This document shows positions 619 through 52,650 of a stretch of 64,000 nucleotides of DNA, in pieces. The translations under genes were made by a program, and so were the position numbers. This DNA is from a bacterium (lineage in GTDB: Bacteria > Bdellovibrionota_B > Oligoflexia > Oligoflexales > RGVZ01). The notes beneath the pieces are model-generated. The model did not search any database, had not been told where the DNA came from, and was given only the letters and a program-made list of their open reading frames with translations. The stretch is taken from contig JAYVPO010000019.1 of assembly GCA_043757325.1 (NCBI GenBank), positions 18,624-82,623 of the forward strand. Direction: 5' to 3'. Within the stretch, counting starts at the first letter, position 1. Every line of letters starts with the position of its first letter.

Positions 619-1188
619 ATGAATTTAGCTCAATTTGCACAGAAAGCATCTCAAACACTTTTTCACACAAACTCAGATGCAGAAAATCAGGCTCTTTTAA
701 GTGATCCTATTGATTTACTGAAATCCCAACACTCTGAAGTTGATGAGCTGTTTAAAGAAATTCAGGAGCTAAGTCCAAAAGCTCATAAGTCGAAGCAAAA
801 AATATTCGAAACTATTGCAAAGAAATTAGAGATGCACACTCATATAGAAGAAAAAGTCTTCTATCCTGCAGCTAAAAGCACAGACAAAAGTTTGGTTTTA
901 GAAGCTTACGAAGAGCATGATGTTGTGAAAGATCTAATAGACAAAATACATTCTGCTGGTTCCGAGGATGAAACTTTTGATGCAAAGATTCAGGTACTAA
1001 AGGAAGCCGTTCAGCATCACGTTAAGGAAGAAGAGCATGACCTATTTCCAAAATGTCGCGCGGCTTTTTCGAGTGATCGTATGAAAGAGGTCAACGATCT
1101 TATGAGAAAAGAGCAGGCAAAGCTGGAAGAAAAGCAGAATGAAATTCATCGTCCGGCTAAGAAAAAACTCGAGCGTAAACGGGCTTAA
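619..1188 (+). CDS. Hemerythrin-like (HHE cation-binding) domain protein
   Basis: AGGAG lies just upstream of the ATG. Spaced His/Glu motifs HSEVDELF, HTHIEEKVFYP, EEHDVV and HHVKEEEHDLFP are typical of hemerythrin four-helix bundles. Confidence 0.8.
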   Translation: MNLAQFAQKASQTLFHTNSDAENQALLSDPIDLLKSQHSEVDELFKEIQELSPKAHKSKQKIFETIAKKLEMHTHIEEKVFYPAAKSTDKSLVLEAYEEHDVVKDLIDKIHSAGSEDETFDAKIQVLKEAVQHHVKEEEHDLFPKCRAAFSSDRMKEVNDLMRKEQAKLEEKQNEIHRPAKKKLERKRA

Positions 1189-2330
1189 TTTTTAACCGAT
1201 AACCGCCACTTTTCACGCGACTCAATTAGCAGCGCATTTAAACCTCCGGTTAAAATGCGCTGCTTTATTTCACCCATAAATTTCTCGTAAAAAGTTAAAT
1301 TATGAAGCCCCAAAAGTTGGCGAACAATATGCTCCTTGGCCTTTACCATATAGTGTAAAAATGCCCTGGAATAATTCTTACAGGCATAACAAACACAAGT
1401 CGGGTCTAGCGCAATATCTTGATCTTTAAAAAAGCTTTTTCTTAAATCGACTTTTCCTTCCGAAATAAAAACAAGACCTTGTTGCCCTAACGCCGTCGGC
1501 AGAATGCAATCGAACATGTCTATTCCTCGACTTACTGCTTCGACGATATCAGACGGTGTTCCCACTCCCATTAAATAGCGTGGTTTATCGTATGGCAAAG
1601 ACTCGGCTGAGATCTCGGTAAAATCACAGCGCTCCTGATAGCTTTCTCCCACTGCCAAACCACCCACCGCATAACCGTCGAAATTTAAATCCGTCAGAAC
1701 TTTCGCACTTTCACGCCGCAGATCGCTAAAACAAGCACCTTGCACAATTCCAAAGAGTTTCTGCTTTGCCGAATCTCTTTCGGCATCTAGGCATCTTTTA
1801 GCCCATCGATGGGTTCTTTCCATGGCAAGCTTAGCGGTTTGATGATCGACAGTTGATGCGACACACTCATCTAGAACCATCATAATATCGCTGCCAATTG
1901 CGCGTTGCATTGCAATACTTCGCTCCGGACTCAGAACAATTTTATCGCCATTGATGTAGTTTCTAAATTCGGCTCCGTGTTCGGTTATTTTTCGTTCTGT
2001 CGGCTGACAAAAAATTTGAAAGCCTCCAGAATCTGTTAAAACCATCCGGTCCCAGCCATTAAAGGCGCGTAAGCCGCCGCGTTTTTGCAAAAATTCCTCA
2101 CCGAGTCGCACCAAAAGGTGATAGGTATTTGCAAGCAGAATTTTAATATCGAGTTTTCTTAAATCTTCAAAACGCTGCATACGCACAACGCCGTGAGTAC
2201 CCACAGGCATAAAGACGGGAGTTTTGACAACGGACTCAATTCCATCTCGTAGAAATCGCAGAGTGCCAAGTCGTGCCTTGCTTTCCTTATCTCTAGCATC
2301 CACAGAAAAAAACGAATCTTTTGAATCCAT
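1185..2330 (-). CDS. tgt: Queuine tRNA-ribosyltransferase (tRNA-guanine transglycosylase)
   Basis: Hallmark motifs TPVFMPVGT, LANTYHL, TDSGGFQ, MVLDEC, FGIVQG, GYAVGGLAVGE, YLMGVGTP and FDCILPT. Confidence 0.95.
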   Translation of the reverse strand: MDSKDSFFSVDARDKESKARLGTLRFLRDGIESVVKTPVFMPVGTHGVVRMQRFEDLRKLDIKILLANTYHLLVRLGEEFLQKRGGLRAFNGWDRMVLTDSGGFQIFCQPTERKITEHGAEFRNYINGDKIVLSPERSIAMQRAIGSDIMMVLDECVASTVDHQTAKLAMERTHRWAKRCLDAERDSAKQKLFGIVQGACFSDLRRESAKVLTDLNFDGYAVGGLAVGESYQERCDFTEISAESLPYDKPRYLMGVGTPSDIVEAVSRGIDMFDCILPTALGQQGLVFISEGKVDLRKSFFKDQDIALDPTCVCYACKNYSRAFLHYMVKAKEHIVRQLLGLHNLTFYEKFMGEIKQRILTGGLNALLIESREKWRLSVKN

Positions 2331-2426
2331 TAAGTATTTTTGTCCTTGTTTTTAAGGTCGTTAGAAACGGTAGCCCTGCTACTGTAGCCTTCCATCAATA
2401 TAATAAACTCTGCTCGATTTTTATTT

Positions 2427-2849
2427 TTACGCTGCCCGGCTATCAAACGCAACTTTGTACATTACTCGCGGCAAATGCACTTCAATAACACTATAATCAT
2501 AGATCAACATAGGCGCTTTGCTGCCCCGCTTATCATTCGACTCTTCAAACCGAATAAAACCATGCCCAGCTAACAATTCGCAATCCCTGGCCACATTCTG
2601 TTGGGCGCGTCCAAGAATTTTCGCTAACTGATAAACCGAAGGCGGCGCGTACTTTCGAATCGCGGCCAAGATTGCGTATTTCTGGTCACTCATAAACTGC
2701 TGATAAGCCTCAACAGACGACCAAATCAGCTCATCCTTCTTCTGAACAATTCGCCTTTTGCTCTTAAGCGCACCTTTCAACTCGCGTTTTGAGCGGGTTG
2801 CAAAGTCGTCTAAACTTTCAAAAAATATTCTTAGCTTTTTAACCGCCAT
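2427..2849 (-). CDS. HTH DNA-binding protein, antitoxin-like transcriptional regulator
   Basis: 140 aa. Winged-HTH-like core SVYQLAKILGRAQQNVARDCELLAGHGFIRF, preceded by a charged N-terminal region. Preceded by a 34-codon RelE-like remnant ORF. Confidence 0.6.
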   Translation of the reverse strand: MAVKKLRIFFESLDDFATRSKRELKGALKSKRRIVQKKDELIWSSVEAYQQFMSDQKYAILAAIRKYAPPSVYQLAKILGRAQQNVARDCELLAGHGFIRFEESNDKRGSKAPMLIYDYSVIEVHLPRVMYKVAFDSRAA

Positions 2850-3100
2850 TTTGAACTATCTTCTTTACTTCTTGCCAGAACACGTCCAAAGCATCAACGT
2901 CTTGAGCTCGACGCGATATTTCTCTGAAATTTCGATGCGAAAATCCATTAAGATTTTTGCTTTGGGCATTTATAGGCCCACATATACATCAATCGAACGT
3001 ATATGACTAGATTAATGTAATCTAATGAAATTGTAAAATTTTAATTGACTTCGATAGGCGTCAAAAAGGTATACAGGGCTAGAAATCGCTGAATTTTCGT

Positions 3101-3319
3101 TCATACACAGGAGCTTTTTTGAAAGTTGTCCCTTCGAGGTTCTTGTCCTTGATTTGCGGGAACTTTACTACTGAATTGGCGGTAAACTTGGTCGTCTAAG
3201 AGGTCAATCCAATAAGTATTTCTTTCCGCAAAAAGATCAGCAATAAGAGTGGATTTTCCTGTTCCTCTTCCTCCTAATAGAAAAAAGCTTTTATTTAACG
3301 ATGGTTTAAGAAGTCTTTT
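3101..3319 (-). pseudogene. Fragment of an AAA+ ATPase (P-loop, COG1373/DUF4143-type) gene
   Basis: The minus-strand reading YKRLLKPSLNKSFFLLGGRGTGKSTLIADLFAERNTYWIDLLDD contains a Walker A motif. There is no start codon, an upstream in-frame TAG, and a stop after about 70 codons. Confidence 0.55.
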
Positions 3320-3373
3320 GTACTAGTACCGAAATGGTACGGCATTCTCGGCATGACCACATCTTACAAATTC

Positions 3374-3561
3374 GCTTAGGGCCCGTCACAAAATAACTTG
3401 TGGTTCTTGCCGACAAGTTGTGTTCAGATTTGAAAGTTTTCTTAGCAAAAAATACCGGAGTTTGTCCGCGACAAATGAGGATTTTTTTACCAAGAAAAAT
3501 TGTGAAGATGAATAGAAATTGTCGGCAAGAAGTATAAGTTATTTTGTGACGGGACCTTAGC
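3374..3561. repeat. MITE-like inverted repeat (43-nt arms, about 102-nt centre)
   Basis: 3374-3416 (gcttagggcccgtcacaaaataacttgtggttcttgccgacaa) is complementary to 3519-3561 (ttgtcggcaagaagtataagttattttgtgacgggaccttagc), apart from a 4-nt block and two further mismatches. Confidence 0.7.
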
Positions 3562-3596
3562 CTTTCCAAACAGTTTAATGCCGCCCGCGTTGTTAT

Positions 3597-4670
3597 TTAA
3601 TATGCTTCACCGCAATTCAAAACGCGCGCAGGTTTTTGCGGGTAGTCAAAATCTTTATTGTTGAACGGTGCCAAACCAATACGTGTATGCGGCTCGCCTG
3701 TTCGTGGTTGAAACCAGAACCAACTAAAATCTTCGCTATTGGTCGACAGTGCTTTCATTCCAGTATTCTCGATTTTGGGGACTATTACCTGAAGCCAAGT
3801 TTTGCTTTCAGTGATTAAATTTAAAGACGAAAAGCTCGGTCCTAGATCGCGCTCAAGAAGGCACGTCCAGCGTTCGTTCCATGAGGATTCAAGGCCGCGA
3901 ACGATGAAACTTTTGCCGTGAATTTTCGCAACTAAATCGGGCTGTGAAGCGATAAGCCGCATTGTCAATCCGAGAACGGACCCACCACCGCTGTGCGCCC
4001 AAGCAACTTTTCCGCCACAAGTCATCGACTCAAAAACTGCTGCTACGGCTTCTTGCATAAATCGATTAGTTTTATCGACCCCGCGATGTGTCACATAGTC
4101 TTCGAGTTCGATTTTATCTCGTGCAGCAACCCGCCCCCCAAAATGTGAGCCATCTAGCGCATCCGCAGGCCAGGTCATCGCCAAAAAACTCTCACGCGAA
4201 AGAATATTATTACGCACACTGAGCATACGCGCTTCGTCTTCGTCACCCCAAACCGTGACATGCTGCCCAGATTTTTGATAGTAACGGTAAATTGAACGTG
4301 ATTCGCGTTCAGTAACTTTTACATTGGCCGGAAATTCACCTCGCGAGCGGTTGTAATAATTCAAAATATGCCAATTTTTACCGCTCGACTTGGCGGCACT
4401 GACATAGATTTCGCCGACGTCCTCATCTTCACCCCAATCGCTGAACGGGCTTTCGCCTTTGTCGAACGCCTGAATTCCTGGAAAATAAGGAGTAAATAAA
4501 ACTTTCGGGCAAGAACGAGCGAGCATTTTTTTCTTAAATGCAGGAGTTAAAATATACTCTGCCGAGAATGTTTCTCGGTCGGCAGGCCCAAGGTCTTCGG
4601 GACTGAGTTTTTGCTTCGGATGGCAGGCAGTAAAGACCAAGGCCGTTAGTATAATATTCAGTGTTTGCAT
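3597..4670 (-). CDS. Lipoprotein, putative alpha/beta-hydrolase fold
   Basis: Signal peptide with lipobox LVFTAC. Nucleophile-elbow-like WAHSGGGSVLG. No closer family assignment is possible by eye. Confidence 0.7.
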   Translation of the reverse strand: MQTLNIILTALVFTACHPKQKLSPEDLGPADRETFSAEYILTPAFKKKMLARSCPKVLFTPYFPGIQAFDKGESPFSDWGEDEDVGEIYVSAAKSSGKNWHILNYYNRSRGEFPANVKVTERESRSIYRYYQKSGQHVTVWGDEDEARMLSVRNNILSRESFLAMTWPADALDGSHFGGRVAARDKIELEDYVTHRGVDKTNRFMQEAVAAVFESMTCGGKVAWAHSGGGSVLGLTMRLIASQPDLVAKIHGKSFIVRGLESSWNERWTCLLERDLGPSFSSLNLITESKTWLQVIVPKIENTGMKALSTNSEDFSWFWFQPRTGEPHTRIGLAPFNNKDFDYPQKPARVLNCGEAY

Positions 4671-4749
4671 TTATTTTTTTACCTAGGTATCTGCTAACAA
4701 GATTACCAGAAAATAGTTGTTCAAGTTTATTTACTTCTCCGAATGATCT

Positions 4750-5079
4750 TCAGTCCTGGATAATCCAAGAAATCCTTATCTTGTTGTCTTCACTAAAAGG
4801 AACTAATTTAACAAACTGATGTGTCGATTTAATGACCTTTAAAAATGCATCAAGCTCTTCGTCGGACACGGGCCCGATCTTTGTTCCATAGTCTTGAATG
4901 CTCATTTTTTTAATCTTAGCAGCCGGCTGATCTGCAGTCATGTCAATGAGGAGCCGTTGCTTAGTGGTTAAACCTATTCTTGGTCGAGATGCACTCACTT
5001 TTTCACCATTGTTTTTGGCAATTTCCAGCTTTAACTCTCCAAGTTCTATCGGTTTTTCGTGAAGTTTCTTGAGCACCAA
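4750..5079 (-). CDS. Hypothetical protein
   Basis: 109-codon ORF with a TTG/GTG start and an AGGTG 9 nt upstream. No recognisable motif. Confidence 0.4.
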   Translation of the reverse strand: MVLKKLHEKPIELGELKLEIAKNNGEKVSASRPRIGLTTKQRLLIDMTADQPAAKIKKMSIQDYGTKIGPVSDEELDAFLKVIKSTHQFVKLVPFSEDNKIRISWIIQD

Positions 5080-5494
5080 CTGTCACTGCACCTGTATTTT
5101 ACCCTAAACTATTTTAATTGTTTCTGCCACGGACACCTATATTGTCCATACCGTTGCTCAATAGATATCCACTTGGTAAAATTAACACAGCTAAGGCTTG
5201 TGCTCAAATCGACTTTAACTTGTTGAAAATAATATCGCTTTCTCCCACAATATTGTTTCTTAGAAGTATCGCAAAGAGAAAGAAATTGAGATTGACCATA
5301 AGTGACCAGGTATTGTCTCGACTAAAGCAAATTCTAAAAACTTTTGGTATTCATTTTTCAAAAAAAATTCGCGCATTTATTGAGACCGTTTTGGGAAATA
5401 TTTCCGGTCAAAGTAAAAAATATCAAAAATAATTTCATTAAATGTACCTCTCGTTTTAGTTTAGCTTGATCTATTGTTTGCATCAACTTAGGTG

Positions 5495-5885
5495 AGCATT
5501 GCGGGGTACAGTTTTTGTGCGCGAGTAAAGTTTTAGAAGACTACTGCGTCTACGTCTTTTCAGGTCCTTTGCATTTGCCTTTTCCTAAACATAAGCTTTG
5601 CGCCTGATTGTGATGGTCGCCTGGAGGCGTTACCCTCAACGACTGACTTCATTCTTGTTTATATTGAGGAGAAAACACAAATTAAAGTTAGAAAATTACT
5701 GATTTCCATAGTCTCGAAATTCTCAAAATTTTGTATGCAAAGGTAAACGCCTCTCGGCGACCACCACGATCACGCGCAAAGCTTTAGTTAAGGAAAAGGC
5801 AAATGTCAAAGACTCGAACAAACGTTGGCTAGGCAATCCCAGAAAACTTAACTGGCGCAGGAAAACTGCATCCAATCGTTGCTTC
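5495..5885. repeat. Long imperfect foldback element, family 2 copy C
   Basis: Arms of about 140 nt (about 5497-5637 and 5745-5882) are complementary at roughly 70-75 percent of positions by eye. The arms are homologous to those of the element at 52168-52534. Confidence 0.75.
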
Positions 5886-5968
5886 TACAGCAGAACCACC
5901 GACCTCATCGAACTGCAATACATGCTTGTCTGAAACACGTACTGATTTATCCTCAAGCGGATTCGAGA

Positions 5969-10380: not shown

Positions 10381-11274
10381 ATGAAACGTGTGGCCGAAAT
10401 TCGCTTTCCGCAGTCAGCGAATCTTTTTCAATTTTGCAAAAAAATATTAGATCACAAATTTGGTAGCATTCGCATCATCGATCAGGATGTGGGGCAGATC
10501 CTTGGCTTTGATCCAGCCGATTGTAGCCATTGGAAAAAAGGCAAAAAAAACGTCCGTTCAATTTATTCAATGAAGGCAATCGCCGAACACCTCGGAATCG
10601 ACGAACAGCTAGTTGTTGATGTGGCAGCGGGTGGTTTGAATGCTGAAGAAGGATTTTTTGAATTTAATGGTTACGGAAATTTTGAGGTCGACCATAAATT
10701 CTTCGAAAATCTTCGCAAAGAAACCATCAAAAAGAACATACCATGGTCAAAAAATTCTGAATCAGAGCTTAAATCTGTCTCCGAGCAAGCCTTCCATAAA
10801 ATTGATGAAATCATCTCAGACATTCATAAATCAATAGATCTTCAAGAAGCGCCCGTTTACTTGCCAGAAATATTCTCGCAAAATCCTGCAATAAAATACC
10901 AGGCTGTAGAAACTTTAAAAAATAAAGACTTAGAGTTTCAAACCACTGCGGGCGGGCTAGAAATCACTTGCCAAAAATCAAACGAAATCCGCCCACATAT
11001 TAGATTCCAGCTTGCACGGACTTTAGCAAAATATTACCTGCGCGACGTGCTGAAAGAGACCGAAACCCAGCATAAAGAACTTAGCAGCCGGCTCAACGAA
11101 ATTTATTGCAATCAGTTTGGTGCACGGCTTTTAACCCCAAAGTTTCTCATTCAGAAAGAAATTCAATCAGTTGATATTAGTAAAGACATTGTACTGCAGC
11201 TTAGTGAACGATTTTGGGTGTCCAAGCATTTCTTAAATCGCCGTCTTAAAGAAGCTCTGCAAAACTTAAGTTAA
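10381..11274 (+). CDS. Hypothetical protein with N-terminal HTH-like segment
   Basis: The preferred start is ATG 10381, with GAGGGGG 9 nt upstream, rather than the ORF-track TTG at 10267. QDVGQILGFDPADCSHWKKGKKNVRS resembles an XRE-type HTH. Confidence 0.6.
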   Translation: MKRVAEIRFPQSANLFQFCKKILDHKFGSIRIIDQDVGQILGFDPADCSHWKKGKKNVRSIYSMKAIAEHLGIDEQLVVDVAAGGLNAEEGFFEFNGYGNFEVDHKFFENLRKETIKKNIPWSKNSESELKSVSEQAFHKIDEIISDIHKSIDLQEAPVYLPEIFSQNPAIKYQAVETLKNKDLEFQTTAGGLEITCQKSNEIRPHIRFQLARTLAKYYLRDVLKETETQHKELSSRLNEIYCNQFGARLLTPKFLIQKEIQSVDISKDIVLQLSERFWVSKHFLNRRLKEALQNLS

Positions 11275-11341
11275 TCCTAGATTTCGGCCTATATTGGAAA
11301 TTTTGCTCACGCTAAAACGCCGTGATTTTTTTGATTTGGAT

Positions 11342-12268
11342 TTAAAAAAGTGGTTTTCCATTTGGCATGGAAATCCACACACTATCTGTCACTTCAACCG
11401 GTTTTAAAGTGCTTTTTAAAAGCGTCTTAGAAATTATTTCGGGGTCGTACTCGCGCTTGCGGCATTTTTCCACTCGGTAAATCTTTGAATGAAAAGTTAT
11501 CATTTTTCCTTCTAGACCTTTGCATGCTTCATTGATAGAAATTATATCAACAGAAGACTTATAAGGGCTTTCTACGTTTTCTTTCCGGTCAATGGTTGAA
11601 GAAAAAGGACTTCCGTCTTTAATCCGGGCAAGCTCTTCCGGGGTAAGGATAGTTAGTTCCATTTTTTTGCCTTTTTTACGGGCGTGATCAGAAAAAGTTT
11701 CGTAGTCGGGAAGCAGTCTTTTGCTGCAGTTTTCAATATAATAAATTTCAGTGCTTGAATATGTCACATATTGAGAAGCCACATCTTTGCATGTTCTTTT
11801 TCCGCTATTTTTGACTGTTGACTCGATGGGCTTTCCACTGCCTATCGCAGCGAGATTTCGGGGGTCAACTTCCGTGATTTTAACACCGGATCTTTGGAGC
11901 TGAAAAATAATTTCCGAATCTGCAATCAAGCGCCGCTGGCAGTTTTCAATTTTGAATATTTCGCCAAAAATGGAAATAAATGAGCCGTTGTACTTGCCAC
12001 AAATTTTTCGTCGTTCGGAGTCTGAAAAAGTTTTGACAACAGTTACTGTCCGATCTTTTGGAAAATGAATGACGTTTTCGTCTTCAGCGCCACCGGCGGG
12101 ATTTGATTTTTTTGGTTCGTAGGTGCTTCCCGAATCGACAGCAGGAGGTGCTGAGAAATCATTTGGTTCATCAAAATCATTTTGGGCTTGTCCGGAAAAC
12201 GAAAAGAAACCAAGCAGGGAAAGCAAAGCTAGGTTTATGTAAAAGCGTATTTTATTAGTTAAAAGCAA
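11342..12268 (-). CDS. Secreted protein with three tandem Cys-pair domains
   Basis: Signal peptide. Three repeats of about 70 aa, each C-x(15-20)-(I/V)ExC-(Q/S/R)(R/K)R ... G(K/S)P. AGGAGA upstream of a TTG start. Confidence 0.75.
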   Translation of the reverse strand: MLLTNKIRFYINLALLSLLGFFSFSGQAQNDFDEPNDFSAPPAVDSGSTYEPKKSNPAGGAEDENVIHFPKDRTVTVVKTFSDSERRKICGKYNGSFISIFGEIFKIENCQRRLIADSEIIFQLQRSGVKITEVDPRNLAAIGSGKPIESTVKNSGKRTCKDVASQYVTYSSTEIYYIENCSKRLLPDYETFSDHARKKGKKMELTILTPEELARIKDGSPFSSTIDRKENVESPYKSSVDIISINEACKGLEGKMITFHSKIYRVEKCRKREYDPEIISKTLLKSTLKPVEVTDSVWISMPNGKPLF

Positions 12269-13053: not shown

Positions 13054-13084
13054 TAAAAAAAGCCGCAGAATCTGCGGCTTTTTC
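13054..13084 (-). terminator. Rho-independent terminator (bidirectional-looking)
   Basis: agccgca/tgcggct stem flanked by an A7 run on the + strand (T7 on the minus strand). Sits 20 nt downstream of the stop of the 13100-13849 gene. Confidence 0.8.
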
Positions 13085-13099
13085 GTTTAATATCATCAG

Positions 13100-13849
13100 T
13101 TAGCTGTCAATCGACCAGGCGCTGTTTCCCATATCTTTGTCACCCTTCCAATTTGACATGCCCATTTCGATTTGAACTTCAACATCTGTATCTGATCCGT
13201 TTCCTGGAGGATTTGCTGGTGGATTCGTACCACCGCCTCCTGGAGGATTTGCTGGAGGTTTTGTACCGCCACCGCCACCTGGAGGATTTGCTGGAGGTTT
13301 TGTGCCACCACCGCCTCCTGGAGGATTCGGTCCACTGCCACCTGAGCAAGGAACAACTTTGCTAAATTCGACTGTAATTCTTAGGCTTGAAATCATCTGA
13401 GAATCTTCAAAACAAAGGACGGGTTGAGAATTTGCTGAAATCTGCAAAGTGAATTTAGTCGTTTTATTTTGAGTTAACCCTTGAATCTTTCCAAGAAGGA
13501 TAGAACTAGCAGATTTTTCCAAGGTGTTACTTGTTGTCGTTGCACCGGAATCGTTTGAGGCAAAGGTATAACTTAAAGCCGCTTGCTGGATGTTTGCTGG
13601 TATAGCTGCGGATAAGACAGTAGGCGAAATCCGGCCTTCAGCAACGGCCGTAAGTTTAGAGTTCGGACCGCTTGGATCGCCTCCGGGTCCAGGCTTAATT
13701 CCATTACCAGGCCCTCCAGGAAGTCCAGATCCGGAATCGGGTTTTTTTGCTGGCGAATTGTTTTCGACTGTTGGACTTTTCTGTACGCACGACAAAAGTG
13801 ACGACGCAATAAAAGCAAGACCAAACCATTGATTGATTGAGCGATTCAT
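13100..13849 (-). CDS. Lipoprotein with C-terminal Gly/Pro repeats
   Basis: Signal peptide with lipobox LLSC. C-terminal PNPPGGGGGTKPPANPPGGGGGTKPPANPPGGGGTNPPANPP. Confidence 0.8.
   Translation of the reverse strand: MNRSINQWFGLAFIASSLLSCVQKSPTVENNSPAKKPDSGSGLPGGPGNGIKPGPGGDPSGPNSKLTAVAEGRISPTVLSAAIPANIQQAALSYTFASNDSGATTTSNTLEKSASSILLGKIQGLTQNKTTKFTLQISANSQPVLCFEDSQMISSLRITVEFSKVVPCSGGSGPNPPGGGGGTKPPANPPGGGGGTKPPANPPGGGGTNPPANPPGNGSDTDVEVQIEMGMSNWKGDKDMGNSAWSIDS
13205..13329. repeat. Tandem 36-39 bp repeat (about 3.3 units) inside the lipoprotein gene
   Basis: Units tggaggatttgctgg(a/t)gg(a/t)tt(c/t)gt(a/g)cc(gcc)accgcc(t/a)cc encode the GGGGTKPPANPP repeat. Confidence 0.85.
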
Positions 13850-13978: not shown

Positions 13979-14848
13979 TTATGTGATTGTCGGTTGAGCC
14001 GCGAGACTATTATATGAGGCCAAATGTCCTGCTGTTCTTAACCCTAAATGCGCCATTACCTGATCGAGGGTTTTTCCTTGGCGAAATTGGTGACCGATAG
14101 CGTGTGATCGAAGTTCTTCGGTATTGAGTTTTTTAATTTCGCAATGATCACCAAGTTCATAGAGCGTAAACTTCACACCGTGTCTGGTTAAAGAAGTTAG
14201 ATGAACCGAAGAATGCTTGCCTTTAAATGCAATAAAAACATTTCCCGTGGATGAATACTTTCCGCATTCTTGAAACGTCGAGCGATAGTGTCGGAGTTGG
14301 GTAATGGTTTCGGAGCTCAAAATCAGCGTTCGAGGTCGCTGGCCTTTAATGCGAAGACTACCTTCGAAGCCAGACATTACAAGCTGTGACCAGGTTAGTT
14401 CCACAAGCTCACTCGCCTTTACCCCTTCCAACCCAAGTAAACATAATAAAGCCTGATCGCGCGCTGCTTTGAGACTAGAAAGTTGCGATTGGGCCGCAGC
14501 CATTAATTTTTCAAAAACTTCTTGATTGACCGAGATGCGTTTTTGTTCGGCACGATTTGGGATAACGACATGGGATGTGGGATTTTCGTTAACGTCACCT
14601 TGCACAATTAAAAATCGATAGAATTGCCTTAGACCAAGCAAAGCGCGCCGTGCAGAATTTATTTTTCCTGAGGAAAGTCTTGCCAACACAAATTCCGAAA
14701 CCGATTCCGCCGCCACAGCAAAAAAATTAAGTTTATGCGCGGTACAAAATTCTAGAAAAAGCTTTGTGTCACTGATGTAGGCTTCGCAAGTTGCGTCGGA
14801 TTTCCCGTGCGACTTAAGAAAAATTTTAAATTGAATTAAGTTTTCCAT
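13979..14848 (-). CDS. Tyrosine-recombinase (XerC/D, phage-integrase) family protein, catalytic motifs apparently degenerate
   Basis: SAM-like N-domain (FKIFLKSHGKSDATCEAYISDTKLFLEF) and a C-terminal ELRSHAIGHQF...AHLGLRTAGHLASY. Start taken at ATG 14848 (MENLIQF). Confidence 0.7.
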   Translation of the reverse strand: MENLIQFKIFLKSHGKSDATCEAYISDTKLFLEFCTAHKLNFFAVAAESVSEFVLARLSSGKINSARRALLGLRQFYRFLIVQGDVNENPTSHVVIPNRAEQKRISVNQEVFEKLMAAAQSQLSSLKAARDQALLCLLGLEGVKASELVELTWSQLVMSGFEGSLRIKGQRPRTLILSSETITQLRHYRSTFQECGKYSSTGNVFIAFKGKHSSVHLTSLTRHGVKFTLYELGDHCEIKKLNTEELRSHAIGHQFRQGKTLDQVMAHLGLRTAGHLASYNSLAAQPTIT

Positions 14849-14871
14849 TTTTTTAATGTTATCATAAAATA

Positions 14872-15477
14872 ATGCTTCACCGCCTAATTTTATTTTTTGT
14901 TGTTGTCTCAACCTCAAGTTTTGCTAGAGGTAGATCTTGCAAACTCATTTTTGAAGTCAACAAAACCAAAAGGGAAATCACAACCTCGGACACTTTGACT
15001 CTTTATCGCGGCGATCTTGTAAAACTAATAAAAACCTCACACTGTGGGTCTGATATGGTTTTTGAGTTTGTTGGTTTGAAACGCGATACTGAAAATCAAC
15101 CGCCGGTAAATGACCTTAATAACTTAATCGATACTGCCTATGCCTTTTCTGATGGAATTTATGCGCAAGGTAAATTTCAAATTTTTATGCGCAACTCTGC
15201 CGCCGAACTGAAAAGTCAAATTCAAGGTACGCTTTCAGAACCGGAGCTACACTATGCCGTGCTAACAACATCAGGAAGCGAAAGAATCGTAAGAAACGGC
15301 GATGTCATTGAGTTAATGGCGAAGCAAAAACTAAAAGTCTCACGGGTCGAAACAAATTTGACCGAAAAAAAGTTAATCAACGTGGAATTTAAAAACACGG
15401 GCCATTCAAACCGCGTTCAGTTGTTTGTAAAATATCAAAATTTTAAATTTGCAACTATTGAAACTCGGATCCGCTAA
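14872..15477 (+). CDS. Secreted hypothetical protein
   Basis: Signal peptide MLHRLILFFVVVSTSSFA. Its stop lies 2 nt before the start of the following kinase gene. Confidence 0.6.
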   Translation: MLHRLILFFVVVSTSSFARGRSCKLIFEVNKTKREITTSDTLTLYRGDLVKLIKTSHCGSDMVFEFVGLKRDTENQPPVNDLNNLIDTAYAFSDGIYAQGKFQIFMRNSAAELKSQIQGTLSEPELHYAVLTTSGSERIVRNGDVIELMAKQKLKVSRVETNLTEKKLINVEFKNTGHSNRVQLFVKYQNFKFATIETRIR

Positions 15478-20342: not shown

Positions 20343-21034
20343 CAGAAATCAACAATATATTTTTGATTGAGGGGCTGCCGATCGTGGAAGAGTATGTGCG
20401 AAATCGCCCTCTTGCGATTGAGAAGATCTATGCTCGTTCCAACGATTTTGATTTAGTCCAGAAAACTTTTCGCACGTTTAAGGTTACAAAAAACGATCAA
20501 CTATCGCGGCAAAGTTGCTTTGCTCACATAAAAATAGAGCTCAAAGATTTTGATTATCTAACTAAAAATCTCGCGGAAAAAGAAGTCATAGTAGCTTTAG
20601 ACCATGTGCAAGACCCAAGAAATGTCGGTGCCATTACGCGCACGTGCGCTTTTTTCGGTGTGCGATTTCTTTTGGCGCCCAAAGATCGGCAAGCGCTTTT
20701 AACGCAAAGCTCGGTAGCTACTGCGCAAGGTGGTTTCTCAGCTGTGGACTTGGTGCAGGTCACAAATCTTAAAACAGCCCTCGAACAGCTTAAAAAACAA
20801 GATTTTTGGATATTTGGTTCGGAAATGAACGGCAAATCTTTGCATACATACGATTTAAATTTTAAACGCTCGGTGATTATATTGGGTAACGAAGAGACGG
20901 GCCTGAAAAAAGGCGTTATTGAGTCCTGTGACGAGATCTTGTCCATTCCGACATTACGAAAAAAAATCGATTCTTTAAATGTATCGGTGGCCGCGGGCAT
21001 TTTTATATCTCACTTCGCTCGAAATCTCGCTTAG
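20339..21034 (+). CDS. rlmB: SpoU/TrmH-family RNA 2'-O-methyltransferase (RlmB-like)
   Basis: LDHVQDPRNVGAITRTCAFFGV, ILGNEETGL and IPTLRKKIDSLNVSVAAGI motifs. Confidence 0.85.
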   Translation: MTEINNIFLIEGLPIVEEYVRNRPLAIEKIYARSNDFDLVQKTFRTFKVTKNDQLSRQSCFAHIKIELKDFDYLTKNLAEKEVIVALDHVQDPRNVGAITRTCAFFGVRFLLAPKDRQALLTQSSVATAQGGFSAVDLVQVTNLKTALEQLKKQDFWIFGSEMNGKSLHTYDLNFKRSVIILGNEETGLKKGVIESCDEILSIPTLRKKIDSLNVSVAAGIFISHFARNLA

Positions 21035-21242
21035 TCTATTGGAATTTTTAAGGAGTTTTATTCTTTTTTTGGGCTTTTTATTTAGAAAATATAAAACGTT
21101 TCAGGGATGATTCGACCGGGAGGAATCTGCAAAGCAAAAGGTCACGGGGCCGGTCTGCATATATCCCTGAAACGTTTTATATTTTCTAAATAAAAAGCCC
21201 AAAAAAAGAATAAAACTCCTTAAAAATTCCAATAGACTAAGC
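21029..21242. repeat. Giant hairpin element, family 1 copy A
   Basis: 21031-21107 is a perfect reverse complement of 21164-21240 (77 bp, plus 2 more flanking bp). Inner 56 nt is tgattcgaccg-N32-cggtctgcatata. The left arm starts in the rlmB stop codon. Confidence 0.9.
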
Positions 21243-21324
21243 AAGTTTACGTCTCCGTTCGAAGTTTCAAAAGGAACGAGCGGGAAGGGGAGGGGGAGAA
21301 AATTTTTTGGCCGGAAACAATAGT

Positions 21325-21511
21325 TTATTCAATTTCTTTAAATTTAATCATCTTTTTTTAATTTTTAAAAATAAAAACATTTCAGGGGATATATGCAGAC
21401 CGACCCGCAAATTGTATTCAAAAAAGACTGTTCGATCGGTCGAATCATCCCCTGAAATGTTTTTATTTTTAAAAATTAAAAAAAATGATTAAATTTAAGG
21501 AAATTGAATAA
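21325..21511. repeat. Giant hairpin element, family 1 copy B (core inverted relative to A)
   Basis: Arms 21325-21389 and 21448-21511 are complementary except for one mismatch and a 1-nt indel. Inner part is tatatgcagaccg-N34-cggtcgaatca. Confidence 0.9.
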
Positions 21512-21570
21512 CCTATTTTTTCCGTCCTAAACTTTTTTGAACACCGAATTAAGTTTAAAGTTTCAATCGC

Positions 21571-21666: not shown

Positions 21667-21742
21667 GCTGGTGTAGCTCAATTGGTAGAGCAGCTGATTT
21701 GTAATCAGCAGGTTGCGGGTTCAAGTCCCATCGCCAGCTCCA
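21667..21742 (+). tRNA. tRNA-Thr (anticodon TGT)
   Basis: 76 nt cloverleaf folded by hand. Acceptor gctggtg/cgccagc, anticodon loop tttgtaa, encoded CCA. One C-A mismatch in the T stem. Confidence 0.9.
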
Positions 21743-21779
21743 GTGATATGTTTAGATCGTTGAAGTGAGGGAGTAGTGG

Positions 21780-21865
21780 GGATGGATACCCAAGTGGCCA
21801 AAGGGGACGGGCTGTAAACCCGTTGACAATAGTCTTCGAAGGTTCGAATCCTTCTCCATCCACCA
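21780..21865 (+). tRNA. tRNA-Tyr (anticodon GTA)
   Basis: 86 nt. Acceptor ggatgga/tccatcc, anticodon loop ctgtaaa, long variable arm, T-loop ttcgaat, CCA. Confidence 0.9.
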
Positions 21866-21873
21866 AAATTGTT

Positions 21874-21949
21874 GCGGGTGTAGCTCAGCTGGTAGAGCAT
21901 TAGCCTTCCAAGCTAAATGTCGCGAGTTCGATTCTCGTCGCCCGCTCCA
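21874..21949 (+). tRNA. tRNA-Gly (anticodon TCC)
   Basis: 76 nt. Acceptor gcgggtg/cgcccgc, anticodon loop cttccaa, CCA. Confidence 0.92.
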
Positions 21950-21957
21950 GCTTTTCT

Positions 21958-22033
21958 GCCCAGGTAGCTCAGCTGGTAGAGCACGTCCTTGGTAAGGACG
22001 AGGTCACGGGTTCGAGTCCCGTTCTGGGCTCCA
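21958..22033 (+). tRNA. tRNA-Thr (anticodon GGT)
   Basis: 76 nt. Acceptor gcccagg/tctgggc, anticodon loop ttggtaa, CCA. Confidence 0.92.
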
Positions 22034-39972: not shown

Positions 39973-41508
39973 TTGTTAAGCTCCAAAATAGTTTTGCAAA
40001 ATAAATGGCCGCGGTTTTACTTTAAAGCAATTTTTTTTGAAGCGATTTTTTTCTGTCTTCCTATTCTGTGGTGGATGGGCCTGAATGTCATGGATTTGGC
40101 TCGTCTTTTTTTAATTGTTATTGCGTATCTTTACCTGAAATATCCTGAAGTTCGCAAATTTGCCTTTGTACCATCAAAACTTAAATTGAATTTACTTTGC
40201 ATTTTAATAATTTCTTTTCTTGTTCTTCTGCCGTTAGAGCTCAATTTAAGAAACTTTCTTGGGCATACCGTTAATGACACGAATATTTTTAATCAAGCAG
40301 CCGTTAACTTTGCAAATCATGGTCGATTCTGGGTAACTTTAAATCGTGCCGGACAAAACGATTTTTTAGCTGACCACGTTTCTCCAATACTACTGATACC
40401 GGCCTTTTTTTACAAACTCGGTATCCCTGCTTACTCAATTTCGATTGTCTTCCAGCAGATATGCTTTTTGATCGGGAGTTATTTTGCAATTAAGATCCTA
40501 AAAGAGTTAAAATTCGACATATTTAGTTCACTGCTTATACTTTTGCTTCTTCTCTATCAGCCAACTTTTCGAAGCCAACTTACCTGGAGTGTTCAGGTGG
40601 AATATATGAGTTTCCCCTTTATTGCTGCGAGCTATTTTTTTTGGTTAAAAGATAAAAATTGGCTTTCGGTTTTCACGGCTGTTTTAAGTTGGTCCTGCAA
40701 GGAATCCCTTGCTTGTTGGAGTGTTGGATTTGGTCTCTTTGCTTTGGCTTATTTGTTGGTTTATCGGCGGAATTACTTCTGGCAAAAAAGCCTGCCTTTT
40801 TTAGTTCTGACAATTTCAGGAAGCTTTTATTTTTACCTCGTCATTTACCACCACAGCCTTTTTTTTGGTCGGGATTACGACTATCTTTCAAGGCTTGATT
40901 TCACTTGGATTTGGCAAAATCCTTTGCTTGTTTTTAAAAAACTTAGATATCTATGTTTTTTCATTGCTAGTGTTTTCTTCATTCCAATTCAAAAACCTAA
41001 ATACTTGATATTTTTACTACCGGTGTTACCGAACTTTGGAATGAGTCTGGTATCTGGTTTTGACGATATGTACGAAATCAGCAAACAATATGCTTTATTT
41101 CCTGCTATGATTTTATTTCTGACCACTATTTTAGCAACAAAAGTATTGTTTCCAATTAAAAAAAACTCAATCCTGAAGCTACCACTGGTTCCATGTTGTC
41201 TACTTATGTGCTTTTATTTTTCCTTTCTTTCTTTAAGGCCGATGAAGATTTTTAAGGAGTGGATTTTTGAAGACTTCTATCACGCCGATGATTTTACTCA
41301 AATTCCACTTACAGAAAATGTCTTTGCAACCTTGAAATCAGCGCCATTTCTATTAGATCGCAAAGGAGTTTTTCTAAGCGATTACGATTCGAAATTGAGT
41401 TATGCTCTGGTACACCACTCGGAAATTTCTAAAATACCACAAACTATTATCGAGAAAACTTCAATCTGCCTTGATACAAAGGAATGGTATGCACGCTGTG
41501 CCAACTAA
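39973..41508 (+). CDS. Polytopic membrane protein, DUF2079-type (putative GT-C glycosyltransferase), paralog 1
   Basis: At least 10 predicted TM segments. DTNIFNQAAVNFANHGRFWVTLNR...FLADHVSPILLIPAFFYKLG and SWSCKESLACWSVGFGLFAL. TTG start. Confidence 0.8.
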   Translation: MLSSKIVLQNKWPRFYFKAIFFEAIFFCLPILWWMGLNVMDLARLFLIVIAYLYLKYPEVRKFAFVPSKLKLNLLCILIISFLVLLPLELNLRNFLGHTVNDTNIFNQAAVNFANHGRFWVTLNRAGQNDFLADHVSPILLIPAFFYKLGIPAYSISIVFQQICFLIGSYFAIKILKELKFDIFSSLLILLLLLYQPTFRSQLTWSVQVEYMSFPFIAASYFFWLKDKNWLSVFTAVLSWSCKESLACWSVGFGLFALAYLLVYRRNYFWQKSLPFLVLTISGSFYFYLVIYHHSLFFGRDYDYLSRLDFTWIWQNPLLVFKKLRYLCFFIASVFFIPIQKPKYLIFLLPVLPNFGMSLVSGFDDMYEISKQYALFPAMILFLTTILATKVLFPIKKNSILKLPLVPCCLLMCFYFSFLSLRPMKIFKEWIFEDFYHADDFTQIPLTENVFATLKSAPFLLDRKGVFLSDYDSKLSYALVHHSEISKIPQTIIEKTSICLDTKEWYARCAN

Positions 41509-43033
41509 AAAAAACAGCTCACACGGCTTGTTTATATTATTTTTAAGTTTACCTATCTGTTGGCTTTCAGGCCTAAGTATTATTGATATTTCACGTATTA
41601 TACTCGGAATGATTGTCATTTTATTTTTAAAATATCCGAAGATAGTATCGTTAGTTTTTCCAAATACGGTGTGGTCAAAAACTTCAATAACTACAGTGAT
41701 CGTCACCATTTTGATTTTTGTACCTTTAGTTTTAAATCTGCGAAATTTTATTGGTGAAAGTGTTGTTGATACACAGATCTTTAATCAAGCTGCTGTAAAT
41801 TTTGCTAATCACGGTCGTTTTTGGGTTAGTTTAAATCGATTTTGGCTAAGTGATTTTTTAGCAGATCACGTATCACCAATTTTAATAGCACCAGCTTTTC
41901 TTTATCGGTTAGGGATCCCGGCTTATAGTTGTGCGATATTTTTTCAAATGCTAACCACAGGTTTAGGTTCCTGGTGTTTATTTTATCTAGCCAAGATATT
42001 AAAATTTGACACCATGTCATCGCTTGCTGTCTGCCTTATATTCCTTTGTCTTGGACCCATTCGAAATCAACTAACGTGGAATGTGCAGGCCGAATATATG
42101 AGTTTTCCGTTTGTTGTTTTAACTTATTATTTTTGGGTAAAAAAATATCACTGGGTTGCAGTAACCGCGGCGGTTCTAAGCTGGTCATGTAAGGAAACTC
42201 TAGCCTGCTGGAGTGTGGGTTTTGGACTTTTCGCACTTGCGTATGATTTGATTGTTGTACGCCAAAAATCCTTTCGAACGGTTTTACCTTATTTGTTACT
42301 TGTGGTTTGCGGAACAGCGTATTTTTTTGGGTTGGTGATTTTTCATGAATTTATTTTTGGCCGAAGTTTTGATTACTTGGGCCGTATAGATTTGCAAAGT
42401 ATTTTTGAGAGTCCAAAGATATTTTTGGAAAAAATTGGGTATATCGTCTTCTTTTTGAGCGCGGGGCTCTTTTATTTTTTCTGGAAGAAAATAAATATGA
42501 TTTTTCTTTTGCCGATACTACCTCATTTTATTATAAGTTTTATTTCCAATTCATCGCATATGAGAGAACTAGGTCGCGAGTACGCACTTTTTCCTGCAAT
42601 GGCTGTGTATATTGCGACTATTACTGCTTTTGGCCTCAATAAAAATATTTCGAATTCCAAAGTTCGGCCTTTCACAATCCCAGCATGCGCGGGCGTATTT
42701 GTTTTGGCATTGTACTTTGCGTTTTTACCGTCAAAGCCAATGGGAGTTTTACATGATTATTTTGCATTGCCTAAACTGTCAACCGAGTCATTACAGTTTA
42801 TTCCGCGAGAAGCCGACGTTTATGTAAGTTTGCGAGCAGCACCGTTTCTACTGGATAGGCATATTCTTTACTTATACACGGCCCGAACGGAAAAGTGGCC
42901 TGAATTTGATTATCTTGTTATTCATCAAAACGAACTCAAAGATTTAACCCAAATAATTAAAGAAAAAACTAGGGCCTGTTTTGAATCTATTGATTGGCAT
43001 GTACGGTGCAAACTTAATGCCACGAAACCATAA
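41489..43033 (+). CDS. DUF2079-type membrane protein, paralog 2
   Basis: Very similar to paralog 1 in the conserved blocks (QIFNQAAVNFANHGRFWVSLNR...FLADHVSPILIAPAFLYRLG). ATG 41489 overlaps the end of paralog 1 by 20 nt. Confidence 0.8.
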   Translation: MHAVPTKKNSSHGLFILFLSLPICWLSGLSIIDISRIILGMIVILFLKYPKIVSLVFPNTVWSKTSITTVIVTILIFVPLVLNLRNFIGESVVDTQIFNQAAVNFANHGRFWVSLNRFWLSDFLADHVSPILIAPAFLYRLGIPAYSCAIFFQMLTTGLGSWCLFYLAKILKFDTMSSLAVCLIFLCLGPIRNQLTWNVQAEYMSFPFVVLTYYFWVKKYHWVAVTAAVLSWSCKETLACWSVGFGLFALAYDLIVVRQKSFRTVLPYLLLVVCGTAYFFGLVIFHEFIFGRSFDYLGRIDLQSIFESPKIFLEKIGYIVFFLSAGLFYFFWKKINMIFLLPILPHFIISFISNSSHMRELGREYALFPAMAVYIATITAFGLNKNISNSKVRPFTIPACAGVFVLALYFAFLPSKPMGVLHDYFALPKLSTESLQFIPREADVYVSLRAAPFLLDRHILYLYTARTEKWPEFDYLVIHQNELKDLTQIIKEKTRACFESIDWHVRCKLNATKP

Positions 43034-44534
43034 TAAAATATTGAACAAAATACTGCCTACAATTTTTTTTGCAATACCAACATTTTGGCTTCTAGGCATA
43101 AGTGTACAAGACCTGTGCAGAATTCTTACCCTCGGAATAATTATCCTTGGCTTTAACAGACCGAAATTTTGGGAAATTACGTTTGCAAACTCAAAGGCAA
43201 TTACCATGCTTTCTGGCGGCATCCTTTTCGGCCTTATTTTAATACTAACAGTAAGCCTTGCTCAGCGTGTATTTTTGGGAAGCACTTTTATCGATACTGT
43301 GATTTTTTCCGAAGCGGCTCAGAAATTCGCAACTTCAGGAGAGTTTACAACTTCGATTAACCGACTTTTTATCAATAATTTTATGGCGGATCACTTTGCG
43401 CCTATTCTTATTATACCTGCGTTTTTAATTAAACTAGGCATTCCGAACTATTGGAGTTCCATAGGCGCTCAGTTTTTATTTTTGATTTTTGGAGCACTTG
43501 CGGCTTTTAAACTTATGCGTGCACTGAATTACAACAATGCTTCCGCATCAATTTTGACAACGTTACTTTTTTTTCAAGCAACTGTACGCGGAAATCTTTA
43601 TTGGCAGGTTCAAATTGAGTACTGGTCTATTGGTTTTGTTTGTTTGGCATTTCTTTTTTGGTTTAAAGAAAAGCCCATCTTAAGTTTTTTGTTTGCGGTT
43701 CTAAGTTGGACGTGTAAAGAATCTCTGGCGCTATGGACGATTAGTTTTGCCCTTTTTGCAATAACTCATGAATTAGTATTTCGGCATGGTAGGTCAAAAA
43801 AAATCTACATTTTTCTATTATTTGTAGCGCTTGGTTATTTTTCTACGTTAATTTACGCGCATACGTTTTTATTTGGTCGGCGCTATGATTATCTTTCGCG
43901 GATCGAATGGCGAGGTATTTTTGAAGATTTAGCACAACTTCAAAATAAGGTTTTTTATTTAATTTTTTTTCTAGCATCGGTAGGATTTTATTTGCTGCGC
44001 ACAAAAAAAAGGTTTGTATATCTTTTGCCGCTTGCTTCGATTTTTGCTTTAGCGTTAGTTTCTAACAAAAGTGATATGCATGATATCACAAAACAGTATT
44101 CGTTTTTTCCAGGTTTTTTGATTTTTTTAATTACCGCAATTGCCTACTCCGATTCAGCTAAAAAAAGCGCCGAACATTTGATTTCGGTACCCATCCTACC
44201 CGCGGTTTTCTCCATGTGTTTTAGCTTTATGTTTTTTCCACTTCGACCCATTAAATTAATCCGAAATTATTCTCAAAATAAGTTAAACCCCAGTCCTTTA
44301 AATAATATTCCTATCACTTCTCGAGTTGTCGTCACCACAAAAAGTGCCCCGTTTTTGCTTGATAGAATGCAGCTAATTGAAATGCAGAATATCGGAGACA
44401 ATCTGGTTTCTTTTGATTTTATTGCTGTGGAGAAAAACGCAGAAAAAGACATACCTCAATCGATTAAAAATCAAACTAGATCTTTCCTAGTAGCACATGA
44501 CTGGATTATTCTAGCAAGGAGAACGGATCATTAA
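42999..44534 (+). CDS. DUF2079-type membrane protein, paralog 3 (more diverged)
   Basis: FSEAAQKFATSGEFTTSINR...FMADHFAPILIIPAFLIKLG and SWTCKESLALWTISFALFAI. The start is ATG 42999 (or 43017) and overlaps the end of paralog 2. Confidence 0.78.
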   Translation: MYGANLMPRNHNKILNKILPTIFFAIPTFWLLGISVQDLCRILTLGIIILGFNRPKFWEITFANSKAITMLSGGILFGLILILTVSLAQRVFLGSTFIDTVIFSEAAQKFATSGEFTTSINRLFINNFMADHFAPILIIPAFLIKLGIPNYWSSIGAQFLFLIFGALAAFKLMRALNYNNASASILTTLLFFQATVRGNLYWQVQIEYWSIGFVCLAFLFWFKEKPILSFLFAVLSWTCKESLALWTISFALFAITHELVFRHGRSKKIYIFLLFVALGYFSTLIYAHTFLFGRRYDYLSRIEWRGIFEDLAQLQNKVFYLIFFLASVGFYLLRTKKRFVYLLPLASIFALALVSNKSDMHDITKQYSFFPGFLIFLITAIAYSDSAKKSAEHLISVPILPAVFSMCFSFMFFPLRPIKLIRNYSQNKLNPSPLNNIPITSRVVVTTKSAPFLLDRMQLIEMQNIGDNLVSFDFIAVEKNAEKDIPQSIKNQTRSFLVAHDWIILARRTDH

Positions 44535-52048: not shown

Positions 52049-52167
52049 ACATCACCTCTTAGTAATACTCTCGGATGACGGTGGTAGAAACTTAGTAGGA
52101 ATTTAAAGATTTGGAGTTTAAGCTATTTTTATCATACATTTTAGCTGGTTAACATCTTCATAACCTC

Positions 52168-52534
52168 CGGTTAACATTGGATGCAGTTTTCTGCGCAGGT
52201 TAATGTTTTCTGAACTTGTTACATCTACGTCTGTCCTTGTCTTTGACATCGGCTTTTTCCTTGCCTTTGGGATGATCGTGATTTTCGCCTAGAGGCGTTT
52301 GCCGTACAACTTTTCGTGCGCTGTTATGAGAATATCGAGAACATCGTTGGATATTTAAATAGCAAGTTTTTCTGGCTTAGCTTTGGGAATCCGCTCATGG
52401 CAAAGCCTCTCGGCGAGGATCACCTTCACCGCAAAGGCAACGAAAAAGTCGATGTCGAAGGAAAGGACAAACGTTAAGGTAACAAGTCCAGAAAACATCA
52501 AACCGCCGCGGAAAATTGCATCCAATGTTAGGCA
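52168..52534. repeat. Long imperfect foldback element, family 2 copy D
   Basis: Arms taacattggatgcag...gaggcgtttgcc (52172-52304) and ggcaaagcctc...tgcatccaatgtta (52399-52530) are complementary at roughly four-fifths of positions by eye. The arms are homologous to 5495-5885. Confidence 0.8.
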
Positions 52535-52650
52535 GAGTTTATTAAGAAGTTACCTCGAGGCTGATTTGAAGCGGCTTCAATAAGGAATATTTATGTCAGA
52601 AGGATTGTGAAAATGGAGTAACTATATTTAGAAATCAACCCTAAATTATT

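Follow-up and report, generated by a model that had tools for sequence, protein, structure and literature searches.

What kind of element is the long imperfect palindrome that lies downstream of clpA, and is its pairing kept by selection? An initial sequence-only reading had offered two answers, a large intergenic palindromic repeat resembling ERIC and YPAL, or a rod-shaped structured RNA sitting in a 3' UTR. We show here that it belongs to a family of dispersed non-coding foldback repeats of about 400 bp, each with two ~150-nt reverse-complement arms and a ~100-nt centre. The family has the appearance of mobile "junk" DNA in decay and not of a conserved structured RNA, and we put the probability at roughly 0.6 that it is an old non-autonomous foldback repeat family of the MITE/ERIC/Correia kind, known so far only from this genome.

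The window (the whole 64,000-nucleotide stretch of DNA analysed here) is ordinary chromosome, carrying clpS-clpA, motAB, a tRNA cluster, tgt, surE and lipoprotein genes among others. Between 22204 and 38523 lies a series of ORFs that, on size alone, would fit a tuf-rpoBC-fusA cluster, and three tandem paralogous genes encoding DUF2079 membrane proteins of 511, 543 and 517 aa lie at 39973-44534 on the plus strand. As judged from its sequence, the host is an uncultured lineage related to the Bdellovibrionota/Oligoflexia; its ClpA is at most 71% identical to the other matches listed, apart from an identical entry in NCBI and Logan, and about 60% identical to the proteins of Oligoflexus and Pseudobacteriovorax.

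Anatomy and folding of the palindrome downstream of clpA

The gap after clpA had been described as noncoding and nearly 900 bp long, and it measures 889 bp from the clpA stop (5969) to the start of the next called gene (5079). The two imperfect reverse-complement arms of about 140 nt reported within it were recovered by a repeat search as an inverted repeat at 5504-5636 and 5741-5873, with 133-nt arms that are 74% complementary and 104 nt between them. In the element, referred to as copy A, arms of ~135-145 nt (72–74% complementary) form a long, imperfect palindrome around an AT-rich, unrelated centre of ~100 nt. The span first given for it, 5495-5885, widens to ~5466-5911 once a more degenerate outer extension is counted; its total length is ~390-446 bp. 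A conserved terminal motif, TTGGATGCAGTTTTC, is found in the right arm on the minus strand at 5861-5875. The parts of copy A are as follows.

5466..5640, unstranded: left arm of copy A; paired core 5504-5636, outer 30 nt degenerate; nhmmer match of the five-arm profile at 5466-5636, E = 4e-38
5641..5736, unstranded: centre (loop) of copy A; 27% G+C, unlike the centre of copy D (below)
5737..5911, unstranded: right arm of copy A; core 5741-5873; nhmmer match at 5911-5741, E = 7e-39

The 401-nt stretch of copy A is predicted to fold into a single long hairpin, with a minimum free energy (MFE) of -171.5 kcal/mol for the minus strand and -165.8 kcal/mol for the plus strand. Shuffles of the same stretch give about -99 ± 6 kcal/mol, and the RNA fold z-scores are -13.5 (minus) and -10.9 (plus). 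Promoter- and terminator-like sites were found at no more than shuffled expectation, and no terminator-like U tract follows the hairpin.

Further copies in the same genome

Copy A had been claimed to be homologous to an element at 52168-52534. Sensitive blastn searches of the window with either element agree with this claim: apart from the query in both of its orientations, they returned only the other copy (E = 1e-18, 62–69% identity). The second element, copy D, spans 52150-52552. The short strings quoted earlier as common to the arms of A and D are all present. Copy D is made up of the following parts.

52150..52305, unstranded: left arm of copy D; sharp outer terminus TAACATCTTCATAACCTCCGG...; nhmmer E = 3e-44
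52306..52395, unstranded: centre (loop) of copy D; 39% G+C, unlike the centre of copy A
52396..52552, unstranded: right arm of copy D; outer terminus ...AGAGTTTATTAAGAAGTTA; nhmmer E = 8e-43

The repeat search placed the arms of copy D at 52195-52299 and 52402-52506 and an outer extension at 52150-52201 and 52501-52552, for a total of 403 bp, and its fold z-score is -15.7 as RNA and -15.6 as DNA. In arm-profile searches with nhmmer the four arms of A and D have E-values between 1e-35 and 1e-44, and their alignment contains 63 invariant columns. The two centres had been called unrelated, and so they appear in global alignment (z = 0.4 and 1.7 against shuffles). They are nearly equal in length, 104 nt in A and 102 nt in D, despite their unrelated sequences, and have G+C contents of 27% (A) and 39% (D), compared to 44–49% for the arms and a window average of 41%. 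Conserved arms around non-conserved centres are the pattern expected of terminal repeats as against internal sequence.

Contigs of the same genome in the Logan collection overlap the window, with L021 reaching 2.5 kb before its start and L020 5.9 kb past its end. A third copy, E, is present at L021:1-117, 2.4–2.5 kb before window position 1 (profile match L021:1-124, E = 5e-27). Only its right arm is represented, the contig end cutting off the rest, and it ends at L021:117, 89 nt upstream of the ATG of a gene for a 530-aa FAD-dependent protein. The search for further copies proposed at the outset thus yielded a third, partial one just outside the window in the same genome, for a total of at least three (A, D and the partial E) within ~72 kb, or 2.3 copies' worth of sequence. 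Copies D and E have a common outer terminus, TAAC(A/T)TCTT(C/A)ATAA(C/A)CTC, with unrelated flanks beyond it, and this outer part is present in copy A in a degenerate version only. The short motif TAAC(A/T)T recurs 22 nt apart at the outer arm end, and a 7-nt insertion seen in copy A is missing from copy E. Identity is 75% between the left and right arms of D, 76% between D left and E, and 71% between D right and E, with the copies overall at 51–76%; the E arm is thus closest to those of D, and the three values describe a star-like decay. In the alignment of all five arms 40 of ~125 columns are invariant, which we estimate from these identities to be about what uniform neutral decay would predict; the conserved blocks would then need no special cause.

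The settings of the three copies are unrelated: A follows clpA, D lies between genes for a transglutaminase-elicitor-like protein and a Big_5 lipoprotein, and E precedes the FAD-protein gene. Copies A and D each lie between co-directional minus-strand genes, and their reported position ~85-115 nt past a minus-strand stop codon is borne out, the distance being 84-87 nt in A and 99 nt in D. A place past a stop codon is not the whole pattern, as D and E lie upstream of a start codon (their ends are ~100 and 89 nt before it, respectively).

No transposase gene was found in the 64-kb window or in 8.4 kb of extra flank, and no matching IS end in the window. The sole recombinase in the window, at 13979-14917, has the Phage_integrase and SAM-like domains usual for a tyrosine recombinase.

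Comparison with coding sequences, RNA families and sequence collections

The elements do not encode protein. Every translated alignment of A and D contains stop codons, and indels of 1 nt and 7 nt break the frame. Small ORFs of the type I toxin kind, at 5723..5875 and 52355..52525 on the minus strand and starting at a conserved TTGGATGCA, were considered and dropped, their frames not being conserved and their alignments containing stops. The idea that single arms act as RNA units by themselves was likewise dropped, as RNAalifold, run on the four arms of A and D in both orientations, returned only a 4-bp CGCC/GGCG mini-hairpin.

A scan of the window with Rfam 15 gave nothing on the elements at the gathering threshold. 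At E <= 10, copy A matches only the plant miRNA model MIR7533, whose gathering score is 230 bits; the match scores 63 bits and is a generic long-hairpin artefact. Elsewhere in the window, the Salmonella sRNA STnc40 matches 13056-13125 on the minus strand at exactly its gathering score (45 bits, E = 1e-4); this is probably a false positive, as the match partially overlaps the 3' end of an ORF and the host is very distant.

Two well-known classes of bacterial hairpin elements were also set aside. REP units are 20–40 nt and REPINs ~90 nt long, and they are mobilised by RAYT (Y1) transposases. The present elements likewise pair two inverted units in a hairpin and are scattered between genes, but their arms are ~150 nt long and no Y1_Tnp domain is present among the annotated genes of the window. 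Integron attC sites are imperfect palindromes of 57–141 bp that mark the cassette boundaries of an array adjoining intI; here the element is 400 bp, the copies are isolated among ordinary chromosomal genes, and no integron integrase was found in the window.

A blastn search of plasmid and phage collections with copy D gave no match. For larger collections we used the pattern GGATGCARTTTTCN{12,15}GTTTTCTG, which fits only three of the five known arms and so would miss diverged relatives. It gave two matches in 185,579 species-representative genomes, twelve in 241 million JGI metagenome records and none in the IMG/VR viral contigs; all fourteen are chance matches, with neither flanking similarity nor an inverted partner.

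Occupancy of the clpA locus in relatives

A close relative was reached through the ClpA cluster mate P0121. It is represented by the ENA contigs L017 and L018, with ~75% DNA identity to the window, and has the same gene order: a gene for an M78 peptidase-like protein, motA, motB, clpS, clpA, tgt and hemerythrin. In these contigs at most a few tens of nucleotides separate the clpA stop codon from the start of the tgt coding sequence. In the window the two genes are separated by an additional segment:

1185..2330, minus strand: tgt
2331..5968, unstranded: intervening segment between tgt and clpA, 3.6 kb, missing from L017/L018; copy A is at its clpA-proximal edge

In the comparison with relatives suggested earlier, copy A is thus absent between clpA and tgt of L017/L018, but the whole 3.6 kb is gone and not the element alone, so that an insertion of the size of the element is not isolated. 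Reading from clpA, the segment contains copy A, ~390 bp of AT-rich DNA and two genes without known function (encoding 109 aa and a 357-aa lipoprotein), and further towards tgt a palindrome at 3374-3561, a 48-aa remnant of an AAA_14/DUF4143 ATPase and a gene for a winged-helix regulator. Searches of its genes with Pfam, NCBIfam and PADLOC identified the winged-helix regulator (HVO_A0114/MarR-like) only, and tied none of them to the element. Copy A therefore lies in a variable, mosaic segment. The ATPase remnant (3170-3319, minus strand) corresponds to residues 3-50 of AAA_14/DUF4143 and is 44% identical to an intact homologue at L020:56-1207 (E = 4e-8).

In a more distant relative, L016, whose ClpA is 71% identical, a gene begins 95 nt after clpA. 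At the site of copy D, the flanking transglutaminase-elicitor-like and M23 proteins have best homologues in the collection that are 37–43% identical, with no close orthologue. We note a second indel between the window and the close relative, in which the relative carries a gene for a 394-aa M28/M20 peptidase (L017:604-1788) where the window has only ~70 nt (11268-11342).

A 13-mer of the D terminus, TAATAAACTCTGC, recurs on the plus strand at 2401-2413, 70 nt from the tgt start and at the far edge of the 3.6-kb segment. We considered it as the remnant of a second end, but the similarity does not extend beyond the 13-mer; its recurrence is probably chance, as by our estimate one or another 13-mer of the element would be expected to give ~0.8 matches of this kind.

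Patterns of change in the arms

Where A and D differ in one arm, they also tend to differ in the other (odds ratio 5.6, p = 5e-6). The mirrored columns number 15 where 1.8 are expected, a total reached by none of 5000 column permutations, and a 7-nt indel is mirrored in both arms as well. The A-T versus G-C pair singled out earlier as compensatory is real and is one of these 15 columns, but descent from palindromic subfamily masters explains it as well or better. RNA stems typically compensate along a GC-GU-AU route; the 15 mirrored changes include eight transversions and several neighbouring positions, and are thus unlike such stepwise, G·U-mediated compensation. Mismatches that are G·U on the plus and minus strands number 9 and 12 in copy A and 9 and 7 in copy D, showing no strand bias, and the better-folding strand by MFE is opposite in A and D. 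Four asymmetric conserved columns share one orientation and none has the other, with two of the four being G·U on the minus strand.

The picture differs within the D lineage. With A as the outgroup, 24 single-arm changes break pairs compared to three that are clearly mirrored (at most 3-5), or about 8 to 1 since the split of D and E, albeit that about 0.4 mirrored changes are expected by chance. As to the question raised at the outset, of whether substitutions preserve or break pairing, mirrored changes between A and D exist, but within the D/E subfamily pairing decays and is not compensated. Furthermore, the partner arms of D are no closer to each other than to the arm of E, which argues against locus-level selection on the helix. 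This is the pattern expected if, as the sequences suggest, a single palindromic master gave rise to both D and E, whose arms then drifted independently, and A came from a different master subfamily.

These observations bear directly on whether the element is a selected cis-acting structured RNA, in which a hairpin in the 3' or 5' UTR of adjacent genes on the minus strand would stabilise 3' ends, be a site for RNase III or regulate translation, and selection would keep the pairing at each locus. The very stable predicted folds (z from -11 to -16), the excess of mirrored A/D substitutions, the single orientation of the asymmetric columns with their two G·U pairs on the minus strand, the similar lengths of the centres, and the positions of A and D past stop codons of co-directional genes and of D and E ahead of start codons are all consistent with such a role. 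We nonetheless consider it unlikely, given that neither strand has an excess of G·U, that the better-folding strand differs between A and D, and that pair-breaking changes predominate in D, whose arms have no special affinity to each other. The loop, the usual seat of conserved RNA motifs, is not conserved, the element falls in no Rfam family and lacks a terminator-like U tract, and it is absent at clpA of the closest relative. The rod-shaped RNA kept in a 3' UTR, as proposed in the sequence-only reading, is thus not supported, in view of the missing G·U bias, the opposite MFE strands, the lack of an Rfam family, the decay in D/E and the location of D and E ahead of a start codon.

Mirrored changes could also arise by mutation, if intrastrand template switching (quasi-palindrome correction) maintained the palindromy of a few ancient duplicated segments, with neither transposition nor function. 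This would fit the mirrored multi-nucleotide changes and the mirrored 7-nt indel that separate A from D, and the fact that half of the mirrored changes are transversions. It leaves unexplained, however, why the same arms with sharp common termini are found at three unrelated intergenic sites, and little correction is evident in the D arms since their split from E; we regard it as very improbable.

We have also weighed a function at the DNA level, whose symmetry would fit the missing strand bias. This would be a non-mobile palindromic site, with each arm bound by a dimeric regulator, a nucleoid protein or a recombinase, whose copies were duplicated with a regulatory role. A candidate local palindrome, TCGCC-NNNN-GGCGTT, is present at the inner end of every arm and is the only locally conserved mini-hairpin, TCGCCNRGAGGCGTT is confined to the four arms of A and D (4 matches against 0.4 expected), and D and E are ~90-100 nt upstream of start codons. 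Yet the neighbouring genes share neither function nor family, the invariant columns (40 of ~125) are by our estimate about as numerous as neutral decay predicts, the element is missing from the orthologous clpA site of the relative, and arms of 150 nt are not needed for a binding site. Such a site seems to us improbable.

A more speculative idea, to which we give little credence, is that the ~400-nt hairpin is itself active, either as the substrate of an undescribed hairpin-recognising system of single-strand DNA mobilisation with unusually long arms (~150 nt) or as a long double-stranded RNA module that sits ~90-100 nt ahead of start codons, like D and E, and regulates the gene behind it by way of RNase III. 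In that case function would constrain the near-equal centre lengths and the invariant TCGCC-N4-GGCGTT mini-palindrome where the loop begins.

A probable family of non-autonomous foldback repeats

The reading that we prefer remains that of an old non-autonomous repeat family. Palindromic master copies would have entered intergenic DNA through the action of an enzyme provided in trans, and the element would thus behave as a non-autonomous mobile element of the MITE, ERIC or Correia kind, transposition being presumed. After insertion, each arm of each copy would drift on its own and the hairpins would slowly decay. Copy A would derive from one master subfamily and D and E from another, and since A and D/E would then stem from separate palindromic masters, the differences between A and D are mirrored in both arms. 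When transcribed within a neighbouring mRNA, a copy would be predicted to form a long hairpin, and if this altered the stability of mRNA 3' ends, read-through or cleavage by RNase III, the effect would be incidental to insertion and not the reason for the sequence. Such side effects on neighbouring mRNAs are plausible by likeness to ERIC, Correia and RUP elements; they could come from a hairpin 84-99 nt past the stop codons of clpA and the transglutaminase-elicitor-like gene, or from one ~90-100 nt ahead of a start codon.

Prokaryotic MITEs are defined as multi-copy, non-coding, intergenic elements of <500 bp with inverted-repeat ends and a stable stem-loop transcript, and their terminal inverted repeats are typically 4–30 bp (PMC10969869). 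The present elements are under 500 bp, lack coding capacity, have inverted termini (72–80% complementary), occur as dispersed intergenic copies and have a stable predicted stem-loop. They resemble MITEs such as Coxiella QMITE2, Neisseria Correia and pneumococcal RUP/BOX/SPRITE in size, in being non-coding, intergenic and multi-copy, in their inverted ends and perhaps in a presence that varies between relatives. They differ in that the inverted repeat makes up ~75% of the element at ~150 nt per arm, in arms that are G+C-richer than their surroundings, in having no demonstrable direct repeats and no known parent IS, and, compared to MITEs of a recent burst, in that the copies are old and divergent (51–76% identity).

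Several of these differences count against the mobile reading. A target-site duplication is not demonstrable, and at the ends of D and E only a TA dinucleotide could be duplicated, which is trivial in AT-rich intergenic DNA; neither a transposase nor a matching IS end was found in the window. The absence of A from the relative is confounded with the loss of the surrounding 3.6 kb, and the comparison covers 2.3 copies that are 51–76% identical. The length of the arms, ~150 nt versus 4–30 bp in MITEs, and their higher G+C content are unusual, the equal lengths of the unrelated centres could hint at a spacing constraint, and the three mirrored changes in D exceed the chance expectation of about 0.4.

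ERIC (~127 bp, enterobacteria) and YPAL (~167 bp, yersiniae) sequences are imperfect palindromes over their whole length, intergenic, transcribed and located near gene ends, with subfamilies that differ by internal insertions. The elements described here are likewise imperfect palindromes near gene ends, but they are 3–4 times larger and have a large unrelated central loop; by their descriptions, ERIC and YPAL are set apart by size (127–167 bp against 400 bp) and by host phylum. The suggestion of a large intergenic palindromic repeat resembling them has gained from the third copy, the unrelated contexts, the non-coding nature of the element and the absence from the relative of the segment that carries copy A. 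There are also parallels to eukaryotic foldback elements and to the Tc1/mariner derivatives with long terminal repeats (IR/DR), which similarly have very long inverted repeats, a variable centre and possibly TA flanks; the TAAC(A/T)T repeat spaced by 22 nt can be counted as a further likeness. Unlike these, the present elements are in a bacterial host, there is no sign of an IS630/Tc1-type transposase, and the TA flank is not diagnostic.

If this reading is right, the elements constitute a palindromic repeat family that had not been described before, from an uncultured lineage of which little has been sampled, and their very long arms stretch the usual definition of a MITE. There is no pointer to a new biological mechanism; only the unusual length of the arms and the unrelated centres of equal length might reward further work. 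The practical weight of such repeats is that short-read contigs of this genome break at E and at other palindromes, that they mark variable regions, and that they can add hairpins to mRNAs.

Other palindromes in the window

The window contains three more long palindromes belonging to other families, and none was found in 9.3 kb of the relative. Two AT-rich palindromes, at 21020-21251 and 21299-21537, lie directly upstream of the tRNA cluster (21667-22030). One has a pair of 89-nt arms that are 97% complementary and the other 78-nt arms that are 83% complementary, and both contain the inner motif ...CCCTGAAACGTTTTATATTTTCTAAA..., constituting a family distinct from that of A, D and E. The palindrome at 3374-3561 is of a third kind, with 79-nt arms (80% complementary) and a 30-nt loop. 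Short-read assemblies seem to be interrupted by such palindromes: within the one at 3374-3561, two Logan contigs from this genome stop at window positions 3524 and 3433, and another starts at ~21108, at the edge of an arm of the palindrome at 21020-21251.
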